Position numbers and translations under genes: made by a program
Source: a virus
IMG/VR virus record: IMGVR_UViG_3300045988_116402
DNA length: 42,447 bases
Direction: 5' to 3' (one strand)
Shown here: piece by piece, positions 1 to 42,447 of the stretch
Layout of the letters: each line of letters opens with the position of its first letter
How positions within the stretch are numbered: the stretch's first letter is position 1
The notes under the pieces: model-generated
What the model saw: only the letters and a program-made list of their open reading frames with translations
Database searches by the model: none
Told to the model about the DNA's origin: nothing

Positions 1-76
1 AAATGCTATTTTTGCAAATTCTTTTTCTGCCTCTGTCATTCCTCCGACAATTCTTTTTATATCTTCCGGCTTTAAA
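1..76. repeat. Terminal direct repeat (copy 1), identical to 42372-42447; circular-assembly overlap
   Basis: Base-by-base comparison: aaatgctatttttgcaaattctttttctgcctctgtcattcctccgacaattctttttatatcttccggctttaaa occurs at both ends. Confidence 0.95.
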
Positions 77-3000
77 ATCACAGGTTGCACATCACGATAT
101 AAATTCTTATAATCGTTTTTTCTTAATGCGTTCAAGTTCATAAATGTGTATCCGGCATTCTCCATTGAAGCTTTATTGTTTTCGTTTAACGAATTAAGGT
201 ATATGTCAATGCGTTCGCCGGGTGTCATATAAATTTTTTCGCCTTTATTATCAACTAACCCTGTATCTATTCTCTCCGCTTTTTTACCACCCCAGCTTTT
301 TAATTCTTTTGAATATTCGCTGTTGTTTAAAAATTCATCAAATAGTTGCGTTGCTTCTTTTACATATTTGGTTGCTTTACGCTGGCCGTCAATAAATTCT
401 TCTCTTATCTGTGACATTGCACCGCCCTCATTAAAATTGCCAAGAACATTAAATACAGTAGACATATTGAGGCTTTCGACATTGTAAATCTTATTAAAGA
501 AGTTATTCTTTTTAGCTTTTGCTTCTTTTACTTCAACCTGTGCCTTTGCAGACATATCTTTTGCAAACTCATGTTGAACAGTACCTAAAGTTTTGTTATA
601 GGTAGCAAATTCATGCTGTAAACCTTTTAAAGTATCATCAAGCTCTTTTAAATCGCCATAGCTCATATCCGATACTCTAATTTTATTCAACCTATCTATC
701 TTTTCTTGCAAATCTTTAGAAACAACAAAGTCAGGGTCTTTCGATTGCATTAATTCAACATAAGCTTTTACTTCTATTGCTTCCTTTATAGATTTGCCAC
801 TTATACTTTTAGCTTTAGTGTCAATATTTTTTATTGTATTGCGTACTTTTTCCTGCATTTCCGGAGGCATATACTTTATCTTGCTGTTAAGCTTTCGTGT
901 GTTTTTTAACACTTTGTCACCGAGTTTTGACATTTCTCTTTTCTTTGCCGCACGTTCATTTGCTTCGGCGTGCTTCACATTTATGTCTGTTATTTTGTTC
1001 TCATACTTTCTTTTTGTTTCGGCTTTCGCTCTACCAACCGCCATTCTTGCGGCTAAATCCTGTCTGTCAAGTTTTTCTTTGTTCTCTGCCTTTAATGTCT
1101 TGAGTTTTTCTTTATTATTGGCTTTTATGTCTGTTATTTTGTTCTTGTACCGCTCTTTGGTTTTAGCTAACCTTGCGTTATATTTTTCTATAAGCTTCTT
1201 TTCGGCATCTGTCCTCAGTGTAAACCTCATCACACTACTGCTGTTATTGCCCTTAGCCATTGGTAATGTACGTTTACTTTCGTTTATATGTGCATTGATA
1301 ATGCCTTGATCATGTGGCGTAAAGTCAGTCATTGCTTCTTTTATTTCATTCTCGGTATAGTCTGAATAATTTACATCTACACCTTGCTCGTCATTGGCTG
1401 TTGGTAAGGCATTGTTGTTATCACTTATTGTTATCGGAGAAAGTTCACTTTGTGCCGCTGTCGGTAAAATGGCTATATTTTTTTCTAAATTAGTGTTGTA
1501 ATTTTGGTTTGTATCAGATATACTATTATTAAGCAACGGAATATTGTTATCTCTTAGAGACGCGGTCTTGAAACCGGTTGCGGAGTTATCAATTAAACTT
1601 CCGTTGCTTTTTCTTTTTGTATAAATCACATCACCGTATCTGTCCACAACTTCATGTAAATAATATCTATTTGAAGTGCCAGATTTCTTTACTACTGCGG
1701 CAACATAATTTATCTCTGTTTCACCTGTACCTGTTTTTATCTCAACAGGTGCAGCAAAAATATAGGTATCATATTTTCTGTCTTTCCAATTTGTTTCAAA
1801 GTCAATCTGTTTTCCATTTTCCAAGACAGCAGGAACGGATTTAAACGTTGCGGCTTTTCGTTTTCCAAGACCATGTGCTACACTATCCTTTACTCCAGCC
1901 ACATCTACAACAATATCTCCAAACCCTTTTCTTACAACCTTATTCCCCAGAGAAGCAAAGAACTCACCTACTGTTTCAGTAATTTTTTTGCCGCCTTTTT
2001 GAAATTCTGTGCCTGTTATTGTTGATACAGGCTTCATATCTGATAGCTCTGGTATACTGTCTTTCAGTTTTGTTATAACAGAACGAGTATCATTTGTTCT
2101 TTCTGCTTTGCTGACAGGCATTGAAATATCAGAATTTGACTTCGTATTACCATTCGAATAATTCACCGCTGACATACCATCATTATTGATGTTCACATTC
2201 GCTGTATTCACAGGATACTGTGAACCATACGGCAACATTCCCATATTCGGAATATTTGCATACTGATTGTTTGCCACTGTCGGCAATGTCGTTCCCGATG
2301 TTGCATTTTCTGTTGTATTCCCTCTTACAGATGATTTTATTCCGTTTCCGATATACTCTACTCCGCTATTTAAAACGCTGAATAAGGCATCTGAAATAGC
2401 ATTTTGTACCACTTCATTCCAATTAATCTTGCTGTCCTTATCATATACTGTATCGGCTAAACTATCGGCTACCGTTCGTGCCGCGCCGGCTAAGCCTGAA
2501 CGCACAGCATCCCATGTCAATGCACCGAGAGTTGACGGAGAATAATATTTATAGCCTATGTCTTTTAAGCCGAATATGATAGCATTTTTAGCGTTGCTAT
2601 CTAACGAATTTAACGCCGACATAAGTTCTCCTTGCGTTCCGTTTTTAGCAAGGTTAAAGAAATCCTCGTACCCTATCTTTTTAGCGGCATAATCAAGAGT
2701 ACCGGATACCAAGCCACGACCCAAAGCTTCTGTTGCTGTTTTGCCCTGTTTTGCAAGGTTATATGCTTTACTTCCGGCTGTGTTTGTTGCCATTATTGCA
2801 GTTGGTAACATCGGATTGATAACCGCTGTCGGCAATGTTAATGCCATACTGCTAAGAGATATTCCTATGTCACTTGCTGTTTGTAATGGTTTTGGTAAAC
2901 CTGCTTTCGCTCTATTCTGATTTTCTTCAGCTTCTTGATATAACCTATAACCTAATGTATTTTTACTTGTAGTGTTTCCAAATGAATACTGTGGATTATC

Positions 3001-3585
3001 AAGATTATATGTATAATCGTCAAGTGCAGATCTAATTCCTTGAGTTTTTACTTTGTCTTGCCAATCAGTTAGTGATTGTTTTGCTGTGCCTGCCAACATA
3101 GCACCACCTGCAATAGTTTTGCCGATTGCCGCCGCCGCTCCATAGTCAAGTCTTTTATTCGTCACTGGCTGTGCATCTGCTGCTTTTTTCGCATAAGTGT
3201 TGCTTGCGTTTATATTAGCTATATTTATTTTATCTGCTAAGCTTGCTTTTGGTAATGCCGATAAAGTTGTGGTACCACCATTCCAAGGTTGCGGTCTGAC
3301 TGTTGATGTTGGTTTTACTGTTGTCGCAACAGCACTTTTAGCAAACGAGTTATTCGCTCTGTCGTTTGCAAGCTTAACCCTTTCCATGAGTGATAACTTT
3401 GGTGTTGTTTCTGAAGCTTTGGGTAATACAGACGTTGTTTCGGTTTTAGAAGTTTTGGAAACGGAAGGCGTACCCGAAGATACGCCATTTGTTTTTTTAT
3501 TTACAAAATAATTAGAATTTTTAGTAATTGCCTTATTAGCTTTTTTCTGCTCTTTTCTTAACTCATAATCACTTTTCCAACCCAT
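1..3585 (-). CDS. Giant virion-associated / polyvalent-type protein, N-terminal 1195 codons of a 1904-aa ORF that continues across the circular junction into 42371..40242
   Basis: Manual minus-strand translation from ATG 3585-3583 (GAGGTGA RBS upstream) is stop-free to base 1 (MGWKSDYELRKEQKK...). The last residues, MTEAEKEFAKIAF, lie in the terminal repeat and are the first residues of track ORF 40242..42410. The ORF is absent from the track because it has no stop inside the window. Confidence 0.85.
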   Translation of the reverse strand, partial: MGWKSDYELRKEQKKANKAITKNSNYFVNKKTNGVSSGTPSVSKTSKTETTSVLPKASETTPKLSLMERVKLANDRANNSFAKSAVATTVKPTSTVRPQPWNGGTTTLSALPKASLADKINIANINASNTYAKKAADAQPVTNKRLDYGAAAAIGKTIAGGAMLAGTAKQSLTDWQDKVKTQGIRSALDDYTYNLDNPQYSFGNTTSKNTLGYRLYQEAEENQNRAKAGLPKPLQTASDIGISLSSMALTLPTAVINPMLPTAIMATNTAGSKAYNLAKQGKTATEALGRGLVSGTLDYAAKKIGYEDFFNLAKNGTQGELMSALNSLDSNAKNAIIFGLKDIGYKYYSPSTLGALTWDAVRSGLAGAARTVADSLADTVYDKDSKINWNEVVQNAISDALFSVLNSGVEYIGNGIKSSVRGNTTENATSGTTLPTVANNQYANIPNMGMLPYGSQYPVNTANVNINNDGMSAVNYSNGNTKSNSDISMPVSKAERTNDTRSVITKLKDSIPELSDMKPVSTITGTEFQKGGKKITETVGEFFASLGNKVVRKGFGDIVVDVAGVKDSVAHGLGKRKAATFKSVPAVLENGKQIDFETNWKDRKYDTYIFAAPVEIKTGTGETEINYVAAVVKKSGTSNRYYLHEVVDRYGDVIYTKRKSNGSLIDNSATGFKTASLRDNNIPLLNNSISDTNQNYNTNLEKNIAILPTAAQSELSPITISDNNNALPTANDEQGVDVNYSDYTENEIKEAMTDFTPHDQGIINAHINESKRTLPMAKGNNSSSVMRFTLRTDAEKKLIEKYNARLAKTKERYKNKITDIKANNKEKLKTLKAENKEKLDRQDLAARMAVGRAKAETKRKYENKITDINVKHAEANERAAKKREMSKLGDKVLKNTRKLNSKIKYMPPEMQEKVRNTIKNIDTKAKSISGKSIKEAIEVKAYVELMQSKDPDFVVSKDLQEKIDRLNKIRVSDMSYGDLKELDDTLKGLQHEFATYNKTLGTVQHEFAKDMSAKAQVEVKEAKAKKNNFFNKIYNVESLNMSTVFNVLGNFNEGGAMSQIREEFIDGQRKATKYVKEATQLFDEFLNNSEYSKELKSWGGKKAERIDTGLVDNKGEKIYMTPGERIDIYLNSLNENNKASMENAGYTFMNLNALRKNDYKNLYRDVQPVILKPEDIKRIVGGMTEAEKEFAKIAF

Positions 3586-3602
3586 TTAATCACCTCGTAC
3601 TC

Positions 3603-5573
3603 TTACTTCTTATACGACCTTACTTCGCTTGAAGTATCGTATGTAGGCATATACCAGTATTTATTGTTTGCTTTTACATAATCCCAAGCATTATCTATAT
3701 AACTTTCGCCATAGCCTGCTGCTTCCCATAATGACATCATTTTATAAGCAGCATCTTCACCACTTTTGTTATAAGCCTTTTCTAATTTTTCTATCATTGA
3801 AGTGGTAACCTTAGAGCCTTTTTTAGAACTGCCTGAAGAACTTGATCTTCTTCCAGAGCTGCCGTTAGCTTTTTTTGAGTTTGTAAGACTTCTTCCCTGA
3901 TTTGTAAGTAACTGACCTTCATATTTAGCCTGATTATATTTTGCTTCTAAATCTCTCTGCTGTTTTAAGTATGTCATATCCATTCCTGTTAATTCACCGA
4001 GTAAATCATAATCACCATATTTATATGCCATTTCGATTTGCTGGTTCATTGCTTCGTTCTGTGCTTGGTCGATAGCCGCTAATCGATTAGCTTCGTCCTG
4101 TGCTTTCTGATAGGCAAATTGCTGATCCCACTGATTTTTAGCAAGGGTAAACTCCGCAAGCCATTTATTATAGCTGTTCTGTGCATCTGCCGCCTGCATC
4201 TGTAATGACAGTGAGTTTTGAGCAAGCTGCGAATACATATTAGCTTTTTCCATATTGCCCTCTGCAAGTGCATTAGCTTCTGAAATCTTAAGCTGATTAA
4301 CCGCATTGGTAAACGTATTTTCCGCACTGTTATAGTTTGACATATAATCACTCTTAAGTCCTGCGAGTGTGCTTTCTGCAACACCACCATTAATGCCCAT
4401 TGCTTGCATTTGTGACGGTGCATTATTTAATGACAGCATATAATTGATATAGTTTGCTCTCTGCTGCTTCTCGTTATCGTTTTCGAGTAATCTCTGCTGT
4501 TCTCTGTACTGTGATGATAACGCCGCATTTCGTTCCGCTACTGCATCTTCATAGTTCGCATATATATCGTCCATCTGGTTTCGTATATCGTCCTTTGTAA
4601 GACCGACATAACCATTTGTATTTGCTCCATACTGTGAGTAAATATCATTTAAATTAGGTGTGGTAGGGTTATTAGGGTCTGCACTACCGCCCATTAACTC
4701 ACCCTGTCCTGCAAACTGTAAGCCCTTGTTATAAGCGTTCTGCATTCCGTTTCCGTTATATGCTATATCTGCATATGGATTTTTATAATCCATACCATCA
4801 CGACCGCTTAAAAAGCCTAACTGCATATTAGTCTGATCGTACATATTACCAAACTGATTATCTGCTGTGTATCGTCCACCATCTGTGCCGTCACCAAAGC
4901 CGGAATATAAACCATCACCTGTCGAAGTACGTCCATAGTTATAACCGTTTCCGGTAAGCGAACCGGTGCCGTAGGTTGACGAATGAGCGAGCTGTGAGTT
5001 AGGTGCTACCTGTCCACTTGCTATTGCATCATGTAAAGCCTGATTATAGTTCGTTGCGTTTGAATATGTGGTCTTATAAGTACCGTCCGGCTGTTCCCAT
5101 GTGAAAGCTGTCTGACGGGTTGTATAATAGCCTGTCGGGTCTGCATAGCCTTTTGTGCCATCATAATCTATACTCTGCTGTAAATTCCTTATCTGTGAAT
5201 CAGAAGGATTATATGAGAACCTATTGATTGCATTTCCACCGTCCTGACCTATTACATAATTATCCTGTGAAATATTACTCTTTGTGCCATTAAAATTTCC
5301 TGTGTTCTTGTAATTAGAGAAATCGTTATCGGTTAAACCTCTATAATTAAGGTTTTCGCCTTTTATCTTTGCATTACGTTCTGCATTAAGCTGGTTTATT
5401 ACGTCCTGACTTGCTCCACTGGATATTGCTTTCTGTATCTCGGAAGCATAGTCTTTGTTTTTGTCATATGTCGGAATATTTGATATTCCGCTACTGTTCG
5501 ATCTGCCGGAACTTGTATTTGTAGTTCTATTTTTACGCTGGTCAGCCGTTACTGTAACAGTTTGTCCTGCCAT
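3603..5573 (-). CDS. Large structural/internal virion protein candidate (G/N/Y/S-rich N-terminal half, Q/A-rich coiled-coil C-terminal half)
   Basis: 656-aa ORF with an AAGGGGGTG RBS, tightly coupled downstream of the endolysin and upstream of the giant ORF. No family recognised. Confidence 0.5.
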   Translation of the reverse strand: MAGQTVTVTADQRKNRTTNTSSGRSNSSGISNIPTYDKNKDYASEIQKAISSGASQDVINQLNAERNAKIKGENLNYRGLTDNDFSNYKNTGNFNGTKSNISQDNYVIGQDGGNAINRFSYNPSDSQIRNLQQSIDYDGTKGYADPTGYYTTRQTAFTWEQPDGTYKTTYSNATNYNQALHDAIASGQVAPNSQLAHSSTYGTGSLTGNGYNYGRTSTGDGLYSGFGDGTDGGRYTADNQFGNMYDQTNMQLGFLSGRDGMDYKNPYADIAYNGNGMQNAYNKGLQFAGQGELMGGSADPNNPTTPNLNDIYSQYGANTNGYVGLTKDDIRNQMDDIYANYEDAVAERNAALSSQYREQQRLLENDNEKQQRANYINYMLSLNNAPSQMQAMGINGGVAESTLAGLKSDYMSNYNSAENTFTNAVNQLKISEANALAEGNMEKANMYSQLAQNSLSLQMQAADAQNSYNKWLAEFTLAKNQWDQQFAYQKAQDEANRLAAIDQAQNEAMNQQIEMAYKYGDYDLLGELTGMDMTYLKQQRDLEAKYNQAKYEGQLLTNQGRSLTNSKKANGSSGRRSSSSGSSKKGSKVTTSMIEKLEKAYNKSGEDAAYKMMSLWEAAGYGESYIDNAWDYVKANNKYWYMPTYDTSSEVRSYKK

Positions 5574-10926: not shown

Positions 10927-12849
10927 TCACCCCTTATAATTTCCGTTTTCCGTAAACTCTGTGCCGATTGCATATAAACCAAACGGCTCGTTAAGTTCTT
11001 CGTTTCTGAATGAAAAACGCACTTTGTCTATCTTCTTAATTCGTATTTTTGTGCCTATTGTTCTCGGTGTGGCATCGGATGAGAAGTTTATCTTACCGAA
11101 ATCAACATATGAGAAGTCAAAGTATCTTGCTTTAGCTCCACTGTTGAATAATCTCTTCCACATGCCTTTTACCTCTGCCCACGCTTCATAGCTTGTATTG
11201 ATAGCCGGTGCTATCTGTGCCGATAGGTAACGGAAGTTTTTCTTTTTATAGAATATCTTTCCGTCAATAGCGTTTGTGTCCCAACGTGCTTTTATAGCTT
11301 TTCCGTTATCGTTATAAGCCGTTTGCTTTGTTTTATCCGTATAAAACTTCATTATTTTTCCGTCATATGTACCAAAGCATAATGCCTCATCTTCTACAAA
11401 CAAATAACTTATATTGGGTATATCCCAGTAATAACACTCGTACTGAAACGAAGAAAGCGGACTGTTTTTTTCATAGACCTTTTGCAAGCCGTCTAACAGA
11501 TATACTCGGAGTGGTGTAGCAAGTACATAAAAATCCTTGTAAACAACCGCACATGAATGTTCAAGGTCTTCATCGGCTAATGCACCATTGATATAAAAAG
11601 AACGGTTCTGTGTGTATTTCTCGCCTGTTATATCCTGTGCTGTTATAGCGTATATCCCCTGTCCGGTTGCGAATAAGCTTTCATTAAGATATGCGAAATT
11701 ATCTTTTCCGACAGCTCCTACACCCTGAATAACATTAACAATACGGAATGACGGTCTTATAACTCCATTAAGCGTTGTATACTCACCGTATCGCATAATA
11801 ACGTTACGTCCGTCTTCGCCTACTGATTTATGCGTTGCAAGGTAGTTACCAACAAGGGAATACCCAACTATCTCATTGGTATCAAGCCCGATTGTTGAAT
11901 AGCTCAAGTCGCCGAAGAATGTAAAATCTTCAAAAGATGCCATTTCCGGTCTATCGTCACTGTCATATGATATAGTGCTTTTATATCCGCTGAACCAATC
12001 TCTATTCGGGTAATCCGGATTACCGCCGACAAACAAACGGTCTGTTGCACCGTTTACACCATATACAATAGATATTGTGCATTTGTTAATCATATCGGCA
12101 TAACCGGCAATAACCTTTGAAGCCGTTATTCTGATGTTATCTCTACTCTTTACTGTCGGTGCTTCCGGTGCTGTTCTGAATGTTACTGTGCCAAGCTCTA
12201 AATTAGTTGTATATTTAGATGCCGCAACAGTTACCCAGTCACCATCACTGTTCATTTGCTCTACAAGGTCAACCGACTGTATGCTATCCGATGATAACTG
12301 ATATATCTTTGTTGTTCCGTCAGCAATGAACATATTGATAAACTTAGGCTGTATTAAGTTATATTCCTGATACTGTTGTCCTTCGCCGTTTGGTGTTCGT
12401 GCGATAGACACAATAGGCACTGTTGCTATCTCGCTTACCTTCTTAGCTGTATAGTTTGTTTCGCTGTTAAATTTACCGACTACAAGATATGTTTTACCAT
12501 CAAGTATATATAACCTACCGCCTATCTCCCATGCTTTTGAACGGTTAAAACCGACATCTTGCATATCTGAATACAATACAGTAGTACCCATATAAAGTTT
12601 TGATCCGGCATGAACTATACGGTCTCCGTTTAAATGAAAAACGCCGTGTATAAAATCATCATACTCGGTATCCAAGTAATAGCCCATTCGCTTTCTTACC
12701 TTGCCGGGAACATCTCTTATCATATTAGGTGCTTCAGGTGAACGGCTAATATCAACATTAGAGGCGGCATTTGTAAGGTCTACACCCTTAAAGCTTTCTA
12801 TTTTTGTTACAGTTCTTGCAACCTGCGATGGCACACTTAACTGTCGCAT
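10927..12849 (-). CDS. Large tail/nozzle-type structural protein (unknown family)
   Basis: 640-aa ORF between the head-completion-sized gene and the fibre genes. Beta-rich composition; assignment is by position only. Confidence 0.4.
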   Translation of the reverse strand: MRQLSVPSQVARTVTKIESFKGVDLTNAASNVDISRSPEAPNMIRDVPGKVRKRMGYYLDTEYDDFIHGVFHLNGDRIVHAGSKLYMGTTVLYSDMQDVGFNRSKAWEIGGRLYILDGKTYLVVGKFNSETNYTAKKVSEIATVPIVSIARTPNGEGQQYQEYNLIQPKFINMFIADGTTKIYQLSSDSIQSVDLVEQMNSDGDWVTVAASKYTTNLELGTVTFRTAPEAPTVKSRDNIRITASKVIAGYADMINKCTISIVYGVNGATDRLFVGGNPDYPNRDWFSGYKSTISYDSDDRPEMASFEDFTFFGDLSYSTIGLDTNEIVGYSLVGNYLATHKSVGEDGRNVIMRYGEYTTLNGVIRPSFRIVNVIQGVGAVGKDNFAYLNESLFATGQGIYAITAQDITGEKYTQNRSFYINGALADEDLEHSCAVVYKDFYVLATPLRVYLLDGLQKVYEKNSPLSSFQYECYYWDIPNISYLFVEDEALCFGTYDGKIMKFYTDKTKQTAYNDNGKAIKARWDTNAIDGKIFYKKKNFRYLSAQIAPAINTSYEAWAEVKGMWKRLFNSGAKARYFDFSYVDFGKINFSSDATPRTIGTKIRIKKIDKVRFSFRNEELNEPFGLYAIGTEFTENGNYKG

Positions 12850-13467
12850 TTAATACCACCCCTTTGTGTTGATAAACTCGTCATAGCCTGTCCCTTTAAG
12901 CCTGTTTGCTGTTGCTTTTGCATCTTCAAGCAGTGCCACGAACTCATTCCAGTAAACAGTCGAAGTAGATATATCATCATCTTTATATAACTGAGAAGCC
13001 ATAAACCATGGCAATAAAATAGCCACCTCCGGGTATAAAGGTAGCTCATAATTATCTTTTGTATTTTCTGTTATCTCATCGGGATAGGCATTATAATACA
13101 CTGTCCATTTTCCTTTGATAGCACCGTCTATAAGCAAAACGTTATTGTGTTCGACATTATAATTTCCCGCTTTGCCGTAGTTTCCGTATTCGTCTTCAAA
13201 ATATACTTCTATATTTTCAAATGAATAAAAATCATACGCAAGCTCTTTAAAGTCATAACGCTGTATTCCTGTTTTTGTCCCGTCCTGCTCAAGCTGGTAC
13301 GACATATCAATATGCCGTACCGCTGTCGCAATATAGTTTAAACAAGCATTAGCCGCACCCGGCATAGCTGCTATATACGGTGCTGTATTATCATCAACGA
13401 CAATGCTTGATGTATCGTTGGAAAACATCTTTTGCAATGTGATTAGTTTTACGTCATACCAACGCAT
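12850..13467 (-). CDS. Head-tail adaptor/connector candidate
   Basis: 205-aa ORF directly downstream of the major capsid gene, abutting the next gene. Assignment is by position only. Confidence 0.35.
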   Translation of the reverse strand: MRWYDVKLITLQKMFSNDTSSIVVDDNTAPYIAAMPGAANACLNYIATAVRHIDMSYQLEQDGTKTGIQRYDFKELAYDFYSFENIEVYFEDEYGNYGKAGNYNVEHNNVLLIDGAIKGKWTVYYNAYPDEITENTKDNYELPLYPEVAILLPWFMASQLYKDDDISTSTVYWNEFVALLEDAKATANRLKGTGYDEFINTKGWY

Positions 13468-13479
13468 ACTACCACCGCC

Positions 13480-14487
13480 TTATGCTAATGCTGTACCTGT
13501 AAGACCTTCGCCGCAAATAGCAATACCTCTCCAGTTGTTGAAACCTGCACCGAATCTTGCTCTGCCTTTCCATACGTTAGCATCTGTATTAGGGTCAATA
13601 TCTGATTTAACAGTAAGTCCAAGTCTGTCTACCCAAGGTAAAGCCATATAGTCCTGATTAAACTTACTGTCAAGCATAATGAAATAAGGTTTATCACTTG
13701 TGCCAAGTCCTTTAGGGAGATAAGGCCATACAAGCACATTCCAAAGTCCTACCTGAAAGTTAATCGCATTGTTAGATGATGTTGCGTCAAGCTCTGAACC
13801 GATAGCCGCAAATACAGCTCTCTTTAATGCACCGTTATTAGGGATAATGATTGTATCAGGTGCAACATTAAGAAGATTGCCGTCATCGTCTGTAAACATC
13901 TGCATTTTCTCCTGCATAGTGTCCATAACAGACTGTGAGAATGCACCGGTAAAGATGTTACTCTGTGCTTTTGTACCCTTAGTAATTGAAGGGTGCGACT
14001 GTGAGAAAAGTGCTACACCGTCAGCTGTTGTTGTGTCGTATTTCTTGCCTGAAATAGTTGTTGTTGTACCGATACCACCGGCAAGCATTGAAGCTGCGAA
14101 CTTTTCTCTCGTTCTGTTAAACGATGTTGCGAAGATGTTAGCCTTTGACTTAATCTTGCCATACTTAGCATCTTCAAGCATTTCCGCAGTTACTTCGAAT
14201 TTGTTCTTCCATGTAGTAGGTGTAATGGTCTTTTCATAACCTTCCTGCATTGATGTAACAGGATATGCACCGTTTTCTCCTACATCTTTAAAGTCTCCGA
14301 GTGATGTTTCCTGTGAATACTTCTCGGCAAAATTAGATGACTTGTCCATATAAAAAATCTTATCAATCATGGACATTTCCTTGAATGCTTCTACGTTTTC
14401 TTCGATAACTGCTTTGATGGGATCCTGTGAACGACCAAAAACGCTATCGTTTACACCGGAACCTTCCGAAAAAATAATTCCTGCCAT
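13480..14487 (-). CDS. Major capsid protein
   Basis: 335-aa ORF following the scaffold and decoration-like genes, with a strong RBS. Size and position are typical of an HK97-fold MCP. Confidence 0.65.
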   Translation of the reverse strand: MAGIIFSEGSGVNDSVFGRSQDPIKAVIEENVEAFKEMSMIDKIFYMDKSSNFAEKYSQETSLGDFKDVGENGAYPVTSMQEGYEKTITPTTWKNKFEVTAEMLEDAKYGKIKSKANIFATSFNRTREKFAASMLAGGIGTTTTISGKKYDTTTADGVALFSQSHPSITKGTKAQSNIFTGAFSQSVMDTMQEKMQMFTDDDGNLLNVAPDTIIIPNNGALKRAVFAAIGSELDATSSNNAINFQVGLWNVLVWPYLPKGLGTSDKPYFIMLDSKFNQDYMALPWVDRLGLTVKSDIDPNTDANVWKGRARFGAGFNNWRGIAICGEGLTGTALA

Positions 14488-36230: not shown

Positions 36231-36499
36231 AATCAACTCCCCTTTGCATTTTTAGTAATATTTAGGCGTTTTTAGGTACTATTACTATTGACAACTTTTT
36301 GTGTTGTTCGTACTATTAATTTATAAAATCTTTACTTATTTAATGGGTTTGTATTGACTTTGTACTGTATTGGATTTACAATCTATTTATAGAAAATATT
36401 GGTAAGTTGATTACATTATATTACCTTATTTTTACATTGTCAACTATTATGAGATTTTAAATGTCGTTTATATTATTATTTTGTTTGAAGAGGTATTTT

Positions 36500-36952
36500 A
36501 TGGCTAATAAAAAACTTAACATTAAAAGTGTACTTATATCTATTTTAATCAGTTTATTATTAACATTCCTTTATCAGTTTATATTTGGTTTAATATGGGG
36601 CGTTTTGATTTTTCCGGTTTTTATGATGATTATTACTTATCATATTCCGTTAATTTTTTACTTTTTGATAGTACCTTTATTATCATTTTTGGTGTTAAAA
36701 GTTGGAGTGTTTTTACCTATAAAACTAATTTATCATATAACATATTCAATAGTAGAGAATATGGATAATACTCTTGGAACTTTACATAAAATAAATATAT
36801 TTAACATTATACTGTCAGCAATTTTGATTATATGGCAACTGTTTTTATTATATATAGTATCATTAAATCCTTTTGTTATTAGTTGCCTTATTGCTGCATT
36901 ATTCGAATTTGTAATTGCAATAATATCTTTACGCACAAACCGTATACAGTAA
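36500..36952 (+). CDS. Polytopic membrane protein in the lysogeny module (superinfection-exclusion/abortive-infection candidate)
   Basis: About 150 aa with 4-5 hydrophobic helices, visibly AT-rich, located between the repressor and integrase. The ATG at 36500 follows GAAGAGGT. Confidence 0.55.
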   Translation: MANKKLNIKSVLISILISLLLTFLYQFIFGLIWGVLIFPVFMMIITYHIPLIFYFLIVPLLSFLVLKVGVFLPIKLIYHITYSIVENMDNTLGTLHKINIFNIILSAILIIWQLFLLYIVSLNPFVISCLIAALFEFVIAIISLRTNRIQ

Positions 36953-37135
36953 CATTAACCATACTGCCAACCTCGGCAATATGGTCACAAAATAAAAAAA
37001 TCCTCCTGTATTAGCAGTACAGAAGGATTAAGGAATAGCGGTTATGTGAAACCACTACTACAAAGAACACATTTAGTATATCACATGACCGCTTTAATTT
37101 CTACTCTTTTTTTAGAATTAAGGAGGTCTTTTTTT

Positions 37136-38155
37136 ATGAAGCGATTACCTAACGGAATGGGTGCTGTTGTAAACCTTGGAAACGGCAGACGTAAACCATA
37201 TGCCGCTCGTATTAGAGCCGGAATAAGTGCGAAAGGAGGAACTATATATAAATACCTCGGATATTATTCGACCAAACAGGAGGCTTTACAGGCTTTAACG
37301 GACTATAACAAAAATCCGTATGATGTTACAGCCGCAGAAGCTACCGTTGCGGATATGTGGGAAGTATTTAAACAAAGAAGATTTAAGGAAATATCAAAGA
37401 GCGGATGCAATATATATACTGCTGCGTATAAGCATTTAAAGCCGTTGCATAACACTCCTATAAAGGACATAAAAACATATCAGATACAAAGCCTGATTGA
37501 CAACTTAGATAGAAGCTGGCAGTCAAAGAGCCATGTTCAAACCTTGATGAACCAACTCTTCAACATTGCAATGGAACTTGATATTGCAACAAAAAACTAT
37601 GCAACATTTGTCAAGATTGGAGAGAAACCGCAATCAACTAAACATAAGATGTTTACACAGGAAGAAATAGACAGGCTGTTTAAAGCTGTGTTTGCGGAAG
37701 AGTTTGCTGATACGGTGTTAATACTTATTTATACCGGAATGCGACCTTCTGAATTGCTTAACGTGCGTATATCTGATGTTCATATTGAGGACAGATACAT
37801 GGTCGGAGGAATGAAAACCAAAGCCGGCAAAGATAGAGTAATACCGATCAACGACAAGGTATATCCTTTTATTCTTAAGAGATACAATACCGACAACAAT
37901 TTTTTGATTGAGCATAACGGTCTTGGTGTTTCTTATCCACAATATAAAAAGGCTTTTTTAGAGCTTATGGCAAGACTGGAAATGGAACATTTTCCCCATG
38001 ATGGCAGACATACGTTTGCTTCACTCGCCAATACCGCAGGAGTAAATGAAACCGCCGTCAAGCTAATAATGGGACATACTTCACAGGATATTACCGAGAG
38101 AGTATACACTCACAAAGCAATCTCCGAATTGTTGACAGCGGTTAATCAAATTTAA
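37136..38155 (+). CDS. int: Tyrosine recombinase (phage integrase)
   Basis: Start at the ATG after the AAGGAGG RBS. Catalytic-region motifs YTGMRPSEL, HDGRHTFAS and GHTSQDITERVYTH (R...HxxR...H...Y). The N-terminus is arm-binding-type. Confidence 0.9.
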   Translation: MKRLPNGMGAVVNLGNGRRKPYAARIRAGISAKGGTIYKYLGYYSTKQEALQALTDYNKNPYDVTAAEATVADMWEVFKQRRFKEISKSGCNIYTAAYKHLKPLHNTPIKDIKTYQIQSLIDNLDRSWQSKSHVQTLMNQLFNIAMELDIATKNYATFVKIGEKPQSTKHKMFTQEEIDRLFKAVFAEEFADTVLILIYTGMRPSELLNVRISDVHIEDRYMVGGMKTKAGKDRVIPINDKVYPFILKRYNTDNNFLIEHNGLGVSYPQYKKAFLELMARLEMEHFPHDGRHTFASLANTAGVNETAVKLIMGHTSQDITERVYTHKAISELLTAVNQI

Positions 38156-39989: not shown

Positions 39990-40226
39990 TTAAAGTGTGC
40001 CATGTATATGACATTGTTTAACCTCTAAAACATAATGCACGATTTTATTAACTATTGATGTATACCGCCTTGCTACCGTGCGGCGACTGGTGTGTAATTC
40101 TGCCGCAATATCCTCTTGATACCAACCCTTACGGGCTAAATTAATTATCGCTAATTCTTCGTCAGTAAAATCTATATTGTCTATAAACTCTTGCCATTGT
40201 TCCTTGTAGTAGTCCAAACGTTTCAT
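39990..40226 (-). CDS. Small sigma-70 region-4 / LuxR-type HTH protein
   Basis: 78 aa. LARKGWYQEDIAAELHTSRRTVARRYTSIVNKI. Confidence 0.55.
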   Translation of the reverse strand: MKRLDYYKEQWQEFIDNIDFTDEELAIINLARKGWYQEDIAAELHTSRRTVARRYTSIVNKIVHYVLEVKQCHIHGTL

Positions 40227-40241
40227 TTACTCACCCTTCCG

Positions 40242-42447
40242 TTATTCAATTACGCCTTGTTTTTTATTTTCCTCACTTTTCTTTTTGTTGTTTATATAGT
40301 TTTTATAATCATTCACCGTAAGGTTATTTATATTATAAGTATCTGAAATTCTGTATTCCTTAACTATATCTTTACTTGCGTGCTTATCAGCATAACCGTA
40401 TAAAAAGTTAAGTGTTGCTATCTTTTCGTCATCGGAAAGATTTTTCCAATATGAAGATTTAACGAGCTCCGGCATTTCTTCTTCAAGTATTTTTGAATAC
40501 GATGACATATATTTAGATTTATCTTTTGCACTCATTTCATGCTTAATGGCTTTATATTCTTTTGTGGCATTCTGTGAGATTGTTTCAGGTGCTTCATATT
40601 TCGGTAGTATTTTACTGTCTTCAGTTGAATTATAAATGTTTTGTATCGCTTTTATAGTGGCATCATCAAGATTACCGGCTCGATCTTCAAGTGCTAATCT
40701 CAAATATTCATCACGCTGTTTACCACTTGCTTTCTTGATATTCTGATTTGACATATCTTTATACAATGCTTCATATTCTGTTTTAAGTTTCGGTGAAACA
40801 AAACCGATTATTCCGACTGTATACTTTTCAGCATTTGACAATGGAACACCTGTCATTTTTGATATAGCAATAGCAAAATCATGTGCCGATTTAAAAGCCT
40901 TGCTTTTTTCTTTTGACATATATTCAGGTAATACTCCCTGTTGTCTTGCATCTGCCGCACCCTTTATATAATCTGTGAGATTTTTAGTAAAATCTACACT
41001 TGTTTCTACAATGTCATTAATCATATCAAGCGTAACTTCTTCTGTGCCATAGTATGTATCTCCGTTTACAATCGAATTGAATATATTATATATCTGAGTG
41101 CCTAAATAAATATTTCCAACCGCAGCTTCTAAATAAGCTCTTTTATAATAGTTCATTACACTTCGTACCGTTATATTACCGTTTTCATCACGTAATTTTT
41201 TATCATTAGTTACAGCTTGAGCCAATGATGTCATTGCCACAACAACAGCATTTGCAGTAGCCAACGAAAGTATAGTTGACCTAAGTTTTTTTGCAGCTTT
41301 CTTCTTTTCGTTGCTGTTACCTTTTTTGCTCTCGGCTTTATAGGCGCTGTAAGCACTGTACATCATGTTGTAATTCTGGTTTCGCTGTGTAGCAAACATA
41401 TTAAATGCTTTAGCCACTGAGCTTTTGCTACGCGATATACCTGTGCGTTGCATTATATTATACATAGGCTGCGTATTTTCCAATGTTGTTTCGTAAAGAT
41501 GTGTAACTGCGTTCCAAAAATCTTCGCTGCCTACTTCATATTTATTTTTATTTAATATATTAAAATATGCCGCACACGCAATTTCATCAGTTGCCCATAA
41601 ATCCATGTTACGAATCCACTTCATTGGATTGGCAAAGTCTTTAACGTTTTGATATTTTGATACCGCTTTAAAACCACCTGTGTTTAATGCATTAAGCTCT
41701 GCTGTTGAGTTGCCTCTATATGCTCTATCCCACCTATATCCGGTTCTCTTGTCAATTTGACTGAGTATTGATTTACGCAACTTAGGAGATGTACCAAATA
41801 ATCCTTTTATTATATTTGCTCCGCCGACTTCAGGAGCCGCTGTTACAATCGAGGCCGTCTGCTGTAATGACACTTTAGGATTTGCACTTAATACGGACGC
41901 TGCGTAATTACTCATAAGTTTTCCGGCAAAAACATCGATAAAATAATTATCGGAGCCAACACTATTAAGGTCTTTTACAAACTTATTTACATAATCAATC
42001 ATATCATTACCATAAGTGTCCAAAACAGCTTTCTTCAAAGTTGTCCCACTATCATTCTTTGTATTCCAAATCATACTAAAATCACGCATTGGAACGCCAT
42101 ATCCGACAAGCTTTGATACATCATTTATAGCGTCTATTACAACATCGACAGCATTTCTTCCTTTTATTGCTACTCCGGTTGTTCCGGTTCTTTCTTTCAG
42201 AAATCCGGCGTTATTTATATTTCCTTCCGTTTTATTAAGATTAAACTCTGTTACAATAGTATCTTTATCAACAGCTTTAGGATAATAATTTTTTTCTTGT
42301 GCTCTTTCATATCCATGTGTAATCATAGATACTTCATTAATTGCATTGGTTGACATAGTGTTAAAATACTTAAATGCTATTTTTGCAAATTCTTTTTCTG
42401 CCTCTGTCATTCCTCCGACAATTCTTTTTATATCTTCCGGCTTTAAA
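40242..42447 (-). CDS. Giant virion-associated / polyvalent-type protein, C-terminal part (same gene as 1..3585)
   Basis: The track ORF 40242..42410 starts at an internal Met. The frame stays open upstream to the window end and joins 1..3585 in frame through the 76-bp overlap. Confidence 0.85.
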   Translation of the reverse strand, partial: LKPEDIKRIVGGMTEAEKEFAKIAFKYFNTMSTNAINEVSMITHGYERAQEKNYYPKAVDKDTIVTEFNLNKTEGNINNAGFLKERTGTTGVAIKGRNAVDVVIDAINDVSKLVGYGVPMRDFSMIWNTKNDSGTTLKKAVLDTYGNDMIDYVNKFVKDLNSVGSDNYFIDVFAGKLMSNYAASVLSANPKVSLQQTASIVTAAPEVGGANIIKGLFGTSPKLRKSILSQIDKRTGYRWDRAYRGNSTAELNALNTGGFKAVSKYQNVKDFANPMKWIRNMDLWATDEIACAAYFNILNKNKYEVGSEDFWNAVTHLYETTLENTQPMYNIMQRTGISRSKSSVAKAFNMFATQRNQNYNMMYSAYSAYKAESKKGNSNEKKKAAKKLRSTILSLATANAVVVAMTSLAQAVTNDKKLRDENGNITVRSVMNYYKRAYLEAAVGNIYLGTQIYNIFNSIVNGDTYYGTEEVTLDMINDIVETSVDFTKNLTDYIKGAADARQQGVLPEYMSKEKSKAFKSAHDFAIAISKMTGVPLSNAEKYTVGIIGFVSPKLKTEYEALYKDMSNQNIKKASGKQRDEYLRLALEDRAGNLDDATIKAIQNIYNSTEDSKILPKYEAPETISQNATKEYKAIKHEMSAKDKSKYMSSYSKILEEEMPELVKSSYWKNLSDDEKIATLNFLYGYADKHASKDIVKEYRISDTYNINNLTVNDYKNYINNKKKSEENKKQGVIE
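42372..42447. repeat. Terminal direct repeat (copy 2), identical to 1-76
   Basis: Same 76-mer as window start. Confidence 0.95.

Follow-up and report, generated by a model that had tools for sequence, protein, structure and literature searches.

A 1904-residue phage polyvalent-type protein with an exchangeable cassette, encoded across the circular junction of a human gut phage genome

Introduction

The virus record IMGVR_UViG_3300045988_116402 of IMG/VR, a stretch of 42,447 nucleotides analysed here over its whole length and referred to below as the window, shows on its minus strand an open reading frame (ORF) that runs from position 3585 down to the very first base. Is this frame the front part of a real gene, cut where a circular contig was opened, and what might a protein of such a size do for a phage? 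An earlier note on this DNA had described it as a hidden gene of 1904 codons, the largest of the genome, and had suggested a capsid-packaged, host-injected, multi-domain polyvalent protein as its product.

Here, we report that the giant ORF is a real single gene under purifying selection and that its product is, as judged by domain content, a phage-type large polyvalent protein. It adds a member to a known class, and both the exchange of its internal cassette and its unannotated C-terminal module merit follow-up. By analogy with virion proteins of other phages, we consider it probable, at roughly two chances in three, that the protein is packaged in the capsid and ejected, the conserved C-terminal half serving as a chassis for loading or translocation and the cassette as the payload.

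Results

A single gene across the circular junction

The first 76 bases of the window are identical to the last 76, which gives a circle of 42,371 bp. Translation of the reverse complement of the first 3,585 bases yielded 1195 codons without a stop, and in the rotated genome the frame stays in phase past the junction, to make 1904 amino acids from the first ATG (Table 1). With 5,715 nt, the gene occupies 13.5% of the genome, the second-largest ORF being that of the 663-aa portal. Its start codon lies 17 nt past the stop of an upstream 656-aa gene.

DNA alignments, including that to the related contig L005, are unbroken across the junction of the window. The ratio of non-synonymous to synonymous substitution rates (dN/dS) was 0.21 against a 98% identical relative and, against an 87% identical one, 0.13 in the N-terminal and 0.07 in the C-terminal part; these two relatives are IMG/VR contigs, in which the gene lies mid-contig. 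The long frame does require read-through of the 76-bp terminal overlap and could have arisen from contig ends wrongly joined in the assembly, an explanation which we dismiss almost entirely given the six other public contigs from different samples that carry the gene uninterrupted in their interior, four of them, of ~42.3 kb, with the identical 1904-aa protein (P0001), and the dN/dS values of 0.07-0.21.

The earlier note was therefore right about the frame, its crossing of the junction and its rank as the largest gene, and went too far in calling it hidden. The gene was missed in the window because the contig had been opened inside it; gene calls of other assemblies already contain it, as a "hypothetical protein". 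A circular contig cut inside its largest gene has thereby lost 13% of its coding capacity from annotation, a loss that is repaired by rotating the contig ahead of gene calling.

One slot for different cassettes

Sliding identity along the protein revealed that relatives which are 94-98% identical elsewhere are unrelated over aa ~465-707. In the comparison with the relative L006 by blastn, the DNA flanks were 93.2% (upstream) and 97.6% (downstream) identical, while 625 nt between them (aa ~477-685) had no similarity and were replaced by 667 nt. The Pfam typing of the alleles gave LPD3 for the source phage (26.6 bits), for the P0006 variant, a 94% identical orthologue (54.6 bits), and for P0008, which represents a second type (44.8 bits). 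In P0012 the same place is taken by PBECR3, predicted to be an RNase of Barnase/EndoU/colicin/RelE (BECR) type (54.2 bits), and in P0007 by MuF_C (77.4 bits). By these sequence comparisons, one fixed slot is filled with different cassettes among near-identical phages. No adjacent immunity gene varied with the cassette, the flanking genes being unchanged between alleles. The locus offers a clean natural case of an effector-cassette swap in a fixed slot of gut phages that are otherwise 93-98% identical, and is useful for the study of phage-injected cargo.

The LPD3 match of the source phage had an E-value of 7.2e-6 and 26.6 bits against a Pfam cut-off of 27. It was seen only when the protein was scanned against Pfam in chunks; the whole-protein Pfam search and sequence searches of the PDB were empty. 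AlphaFold2 (AF2) modelled this domain as an alpha+beta fold, in which helices precede an antiparallel sheet of 4-5 strands, at a predicted local distance difference test (pLDDT) above 90. Compared with the PDB by Foldseek, it gave nothing below E 0.7, with insignificant NTF2-like or cystatin-like matches only. Alignment of LPD3 with the PBECR3 and MuF_C cassettes by hhalign was not significant either, a comparison of low power, as PBECR3 against MuF_C was also not significant. The "nuclease-like module" of the earlier note is an LPD3 domain with no significant fold or profile link to nucleases in these comparisons, but the slot itself does hold predicted BECR-type RNases in sister phages.

Membership of the polyvalent class

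The assignment to the large polyvalent proteins follows from domain content, namely LPD3 at aa ~537-642 here, and LPD3, PBECR3, MuF_C, LPD38, PBECR5 and ART-PolyVal among homologues and sister alleles; the suggestion of a multi-domain, polyvalent-type protein is thus borne out. At least five conserved modules were distinguished by homology and AF2, one of which maps to a catalogued domain. The gene is also encoded beside virion genes, sharing strand and operon with those for terminase, portal, capsid, tail fibre-like and lysis proteins, and this position is the same in relatives. Self-processing by a zincin peptidase, a frequent though not universal feature of the class, has no counterpart in the giant protein, where neither an HExxH motif nor a peptidase family (Pfam, NCBIfam) was found.

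Layout of the 1904-aa protein

Segment borders (Table 1) were drawn from hydropathy and composition, segment-wise iterative search (jackhmmer, 120 homologues), sliding identity and two AlphaFold models. The N module was present in 100 of the 120 homologues, including LPD38-type proteins without the C-terminal core module (C-core); in this sister group, it is joined to an LPD38-type C-terminal half in place of the C-core. The charged C-terminal tail is kept in 37 homologues.

Table 1. Coordinates of the giant gene, the segments of its product and neighbouring features; nucleotide positions are those of the window.
Feature	Residues (aa)	Position (nt)	Strand	Basis or remark
First 1195 codons of the 1904-aa ORF		1..3585	-	ATG 3585-3583 down to base 1
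Last 709 codons and stop		40242..42371	-	In-frame continuation on the rotated genome; stop 40242-40244
Terminal overlap		42372..42447		Exact copy of window bases 1-76, 76 bp
Shine-Dalgarno GAGGTG		3591..3596	-	5 nt upstream of the ATG of the giant gene
N-terminal tail	1-140	3166..3585	-	Lys/Ser/Thr/Asn-rich, low complexity; two LPKA motifs (aa 54, 111)
N module	141-465	2191..3165	-	Predicted helical, Gly/Ala segments; AF2 low-confidence
Exchangeable cassette and linkers	466-707	1465..2190	-	Sliding identity, blastn breakpoints, Pfam typing
LPD3 (PF18798)	537-642	1660..1977	-	Pfam, tblastn to H66 gp60, AF2
Linker and coiled coil	708-999	589..1464	-	LPxA at aa 707, 727, 774, then Lys-rich coiled coil aa ~790-1000
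C-core, first part	1000-1195	1..588	-	Alignment, AF2, PHROGs 22978 and 28077
C-core, remainder	1196-1720	40797..42371	-	All-alpha
Hydrophobic segment	1561-1579	41220..41276	-	TILSLATANAVVVAMTSLA; KD19 1.69, maximum of the protein
Charged C-terminal tail	1721-1904 and stop	40242..40796	-	Conserved among jackhmmer homologues
LPxA-type motif copies	54, 111, 251, 260, 434, 707, 727, 774		-	aa 707-710 = window 1456-1467
Upstream 656-aa gene		3603..5573	-	Stop 3603-3605; no family match, no Cys, close-coupled translationally to the giant gene
640-aa protein		10927-12849	-	Homologous to Page gp15
205-aa protein		12850-13467	-	Homologous to Page gp12
78-aa HTH or sigma-factor region-4-like protein		39990-40226	-	15 nt past the giant gene
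Integrase		37046-38155	+	Opposite strand from the late genes
163-aa protein		36461-36952	+	Slot between integrase and repressor

The sequence motifs cited in the earlier note were located at aa 148, 245, 812 and 860, as given there. The 20-aa internal repeat of the coiled coil (aa ~806-825 and ~854-873) scored 60 against 33.5 +/- 6.2 in shuffled sequences, in agreement with the internal duplication proposed before. The hydrophobic Gly/Ala segments pointed out near the N-terminus are present, but only weakly hydrophobic: their hydropathy scores (KD19) of 1.17 and 1.33 are below the threshold of 1.6, and the strongest segment lies at aa 1561-1579 instead. In 141 of 156 C-core sequences, the hydrophobic maximum falls at the alignment position of the latter. 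The giant protein contains one Cys in its 1904 residues and the 656-aa neighbour none, while Cys makes up 1.44% of the other ORFs together and 0.3-0.6% of the other large structural proteins; this depletion gives weak circumstantial support to a packaged and ejected protein.

A recurrent LPxA-type motif

The motif [T/V/A/I]-[L/M]-P-[K/T/R/M]-[A/V] occurs in eight copies in the giant protein, with 0.35 expected, and hardly occurs in the remaining ORFs of the window. Linkers (the N-terminal tail and either side of the cassette) hold six of these copies, and distant homologues with different surrounding sequence keep the motif in similar positions. These LPxA-type motifs may be putative processing or docking sites. 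A shared prohead-protease site was considered and found unsupported, as the capsid and scaffold candidates lack the motif and the other ORFs contain one match in 11.5k aa; a sortase motif was rejected, there being no Thr at position 4.

The C-core as a large uncurated family

The AF2 model of the C-core (~720 aa) is all-alpha, with a pLDDT of 73 and a predicted template modelling (TM) score of 0.73. No Pfam or NCBIfam family covers this module; Pfam scans of 18 core sequences returned scattered single-member noise. In the PDB, there was no sequence or profile match, and the best Foldseek hit had an E-value of 0.2 and a TM-score of ~0.1. Against BFVD, E-values went down to 4e-32 and TM-scores reached 0.6-0.76, the matches being pieces of giant proteins of viruses that bear the names PolyVal ADP-ribosyltransferase, MuF C-terminal domain protein, "Large polyvalent protein-associated domain" or "Nuclease", which supports the assignment to the polyvalent class. 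A further BFVD match, to a "structural protein" of Tenacibaculum phage Gundel_1, was discarded with a TM-score of 0.32 only.

The C-core profile, scanned in full with HMMER against 1.84 billion representatives of 50%-identity clusters, matched 10,584 proteins at E <=1e-3 and 5,340 at E <=1e-30. In the best 138 matches, the core is located near the C-terminus of proteins of 890-4296 aa, with a median of 1,876 aa on its N-terminal side and 232 aa on the other. It was not found in 72,556 plasmids at the sensitivity of BLAST, which is circumstantial support for the packaging proposed below, and among 50,697 GenBank phage records, it occurred in two faecal fragments only and in no cultured-phage record. 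The "about 1000 aa with no family" noted earlier do lack a curated family, but belong to a very large uncurated one. For most of the giant protein, and above all for this module of ~720 aa with its more than 10,000 protein clusters, there is neither a curated family nor a solved structure nor a representative in cultured phages; a family model, together with a single proteomics or cryo-EM experiment on virions, would bring annotation to thousands of giant phage genes at once.

It should be added that C-core proteins were also seen fused to a Maf domain (P0121), an N-acetyltransferase, a "UDP-N-acetylglucosamine kinase" and beta/gamma-crystallin motifs. Such fusions point to a payload repertoire wider than the catalogued polyvalent domains.

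Position in the genome and kind of phage

The late genes are all on the minus strand, starting with the small and large terminase, portal and capsid protein, which are followed by seven genes either unassigned or tail-fibre-like, by a pair of holin-like genes and an endolysin, and then by the 656-aa gene, the giant gene, a 78-aa helix-turn-helix (HTH) protein and three small genes. The integrase is encoded on the opposite strand, four small genes beyond the giant gene. This order agrees with the placement of the gene downstream of the lysis genes and of the 656-aa protein in the earlier note, which had also rightly denied the genome a tail tube, sheath or tape-measure module: no such family was matched in PHROGs or Pfam, and two structural proteins have podophage homologues.

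The gaps flanking the giant gene are 12-17 nt long, its Shine-Dalgarno sequence is strong, and counts of promoter-like and terminator-like motifs around it were equal to those in shuffled sequence, which makes co-transcription with the late operon the simplest reading. Within the late operon of structural and lysis genes, the giant gene occupies the distal end. In two distant members of the C-core family, the giant gene likewise closes the late genes, with the integrase or the end of the prophage beside it.

Podophage Page of Bacillus megaterium has homologues, with 25-26% identity, of the 640-aa protein (gp15, a "virion structural protein") and of the 205-aa protein (gp12); none of the other virion-structure genes queried had a match in a cultured phage. 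The portal matched only unannotated phage fragments from human faeces, and two scans of 185,579 GTDB species-representative genomes revealed no relative. The source is predicted from its gene content to be a temperate, podovirus-like phage of the human gut, ~42.4 kb in size.

Discussion

A proposed packaged and ejected protein

Polyvalent proteins encoded among virion genes have been inferred to be packaged and injected (Iyer et al. 2017, PMC5512222). The same is proposed here because proteins known from virions share with the giant protein, or with its homologues, LPD3 or LPD38 and the position of the gene. A few copies would be packaged inside the capsid and, upon infection, leave through the portal and the short tail, before the DNA or along with it. 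The coiled coil and the C-core with its conserved hydrophobic helix might serve incorporation into the virion, passage of the cell envelope, or both. The cassette would be the payload, acting in the newly infected cell on nucleic acids or defences of the host or of rival elements, and the LPxA motifs in the linkers might be processing sites that free the modules.

Several points weigh against this proposal. The virion-verified precedents have LPD3 or LPD38 alone in common with this protein group, without the N module or the C-core, and packaging and ejection are argued by analogy for the giant protein and for all carriers of the C-core. The LPD3 score is 0.4 bit below the Pfam cut-off, and neither sequence nor model suggests an activity that could be assigned to this domain. 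The Gly/Ala segments near the N-terminus fall short of the hydrophobicity of transmembrane helices, and the zincin peptidase is missing. The podovirus morphology is itself a prediction from genes, and lysogenic-conversion genes, too, are classically found past the lysis cassette and close to the integrase, where the giant gene lies.

The last point leads to the alternative that survives best, although we regard it as improbable: a prophage polymorphic toxin or lysogenic-conversion factor, which would be made by the lysogen or freed at lysis to harm competitors and would be no component of the virion. It would suit a gene beyond the lysis genes and four small genes from the integrase, and a cassette polymorphism with predicted RNase alleles recalls the MuF toxins of temperate phages. 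In these polymorphic toxins, a conserved phage scaffold is combined with interchangeable toxin-type domains (Jamet et al. 2017, PMC5576092). However, no immunity gene co-varies with the cassette, whose flanks remain 97.6% and 93% identical across alleles, and Pfam detected neither a MuF N-terminal domain nor a secretion-system domain. The giant gene is also tightly coupled to the late operon, promoter and terminator signals around it being no more frequent than by chance, and proteins that share domains with the giant one do occur in virions. The variable module is, moreover, internal in the giant protein, which has no Phage_Mu_F match, while that of MuF toxins is C-terminal.

Still less probable, it appears, is a structural role on the outside of the short tail, for instance as tail needle, central fibre or cell-wall-penetrating device. 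Large size, a coiled coil, a position in the structural operon and neighbours that are undefined tail proteins would all fit such a role, but the slot holds effector domains of intracellular type (PBECR3, MuF_C), and the core is modelled as all-alpha and shows neither a beta-helix nor a fibre or receptor-binding fold. In the podovirus phi24B, furthermore, the giant polyvalent protein is abundant by mass spectrometry and absent from the external cryogenic electron microscopy (cryo-EM) density.

We see very little room for the reading as a tape-measure protein of a siphovirus with unrecognised tail genes. The protein is indeed long, mostly helical and endowed with Gly/Ala-rich segments, and most tail genes of the genome lack a family match. 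Against this stand the missing tape-measure match in Pfam, PHROG and NCBIfam, the lack of a tail tube, chaperone pair and distal tail genes, and the fact that just seven ORFs separate the capsid gene from the lysis genes. The giant gene lies past the lysis cassette, outside any tail module; for two structural proteins, podoviruses supply the nearest relatives in culture, and an exchangeable RNase-type cassette is foreign to tape measures.

Packaging and ejection, which we continue to prefer, can be extended into a more general picture, to be taken as tentative and open to considerable doubt. The C-core would then be an unnamed, very large family with a fold not in the PDB, the common delivery chassis of giant phage polyvalent proteins, for capsid loading and for envelope crossing by means of the hydrophobic helix; in this phage group, one linker-flanked slot would take LPD3, PBECR3 or MuF_C, and the LPxA motifs would be cleavage sites for release.

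Comparison with known systems

The class described by Iyer et al. (2017) shares with the source phage a giant multi-module protein among virion genes and the LPD3 domain, and its mosaic exchange of domains in Helicobacter prophage polyvalent proteins resembles the exchange seen here. In contrast to that class, there is one catalogued domain per protein, with no zincin-like peptidase, methylase-helicase dyad or ADP-ribosyltransferase (ART) domain, and the N module, coiled coil, C-core and tail, which make up ~75% of the length, are outside the catalogued domains.

A precedent that carries LPD3 is found in the Pseudomonas phage H66 (Hollowayvirus, F116-like), a temperate podophage. Its gp60, a 3787-aa "PLxRFG domain-containing protein" with LPD23, LPD3, methyltransferase and PLxRFG domains, is annotated as "verified by mass spectrometry as part of the virion", and its gene ends the structural module, close to lysis genes and integrase. 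The LPD3 domains of the two proteins are 31% identical over 131 aa (tblastn). Nevertheless, gp60 is twice as long, has LPD23 and the methyltransferase in addition, and is encoded before the lysis genes, not after them as in the source phage. Its conserved C-terminal module of ~680 aa (NF032893) has no detectable kinship to the C-core, with an hhalign probability of <=1%. Homology of the C-core to the PLxRFG or "tail-700" module (NF032893, 681 positions) is accordingly not claimed, since a single sequence, a 46-sequence alignment and the 156-sequence core profile never exceeded 1%; against the 46-sequence PLxRFG alignment, the probability was 0.6-1% and only a short ETQ..Y...R...F.T motif was aligned. 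No segment of the giant protein matched NCBIfam at E up to 10.

Page, a podophage of ~40 kb, encodes as the last gene of its structural module, beside the holin, the 1679-aa gp20 with LPD38, the domain of the sister group that shares the N module of the giant protein. Page gp20 has, however, no detectable similarity to the N module, cassette or C-core, and Page has no integrase. Profiles of the C-core and N module matched neither H66 gp60 nor Page gp20.

Two further systems are likened by description. The Shiga toxin (Stx) phage phi24B, a temperate podovirus, has in gp47 (2811 aa; LPD5, LPD1, LPD38, MuF-C) a giant polyvalent protein which was abundant in virion proteomics, was not seen in the external cryo-EM density and has been proposed to be an ejection protein (bioRxiv 10.64898/2026.04.10.717836). 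It differs in its Gram-negative host and domain set, MuF_C being shared as a cassette allele. The prophages phi1 and phi4 of Clostridium clostridioforme LM41 are ~41-kb elements from a gut Lachnospiraceae host with podovirus-like particles in transmission electron microscopy (PMC11318856). Podovirus morphology has been predicted for them too, and they carry at the 3' end an unusually large ORF similar to LPD3 (PMC11318856); with ~8 kb, this ORF takes up ~20% of the genome, the giant gene of the source phage being shorter (5.7 kb).

As with N4 gp50, the virion RNA polymerase, and T7 gp16, the giant gene is the largest of a short-tailed phage, and packaging and ejection would be a proposed likeness. 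Its product differs from these in lacking both an RNA polymerase and a lytic transglycosylase domain, and nothing in the PDB, solved phage structures included, matched its fold.

Neighbouring genes and variable slots

The 656-aa protein encoded directly upstream is a candidate, and possible, partner virion or ejection protein. On the other side, the 78-aa HTH or sigma-factor region-4-like protein is kept in relatives.

A close relative of the phage, with a giant protein 86% identical, occupies bases 1-20057 of the contig L001 (ENA ERZ18707879 NODE_47, 107,663 bp). Its gene order past the integrase is as in the circular form; a concatemer, a misassembly or a larger element would each be possible. 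The slot between integrase and repressor, which holds the 163-aa protein in the window, varies among close relatives: L001 has in its place a 305-aa Cu_amine_oxidN1-domain protein (13343-14260), and L007 (19004-19447) and L008 have proteins of 147-150 aa. The early region is variable too, with, for example, a 3'-phosphoadenosine 5'-phosphosulfate (PAPS) reductase in L007. Both the integrase-repressor slot and the early-region variants look like moron-type variable slots.

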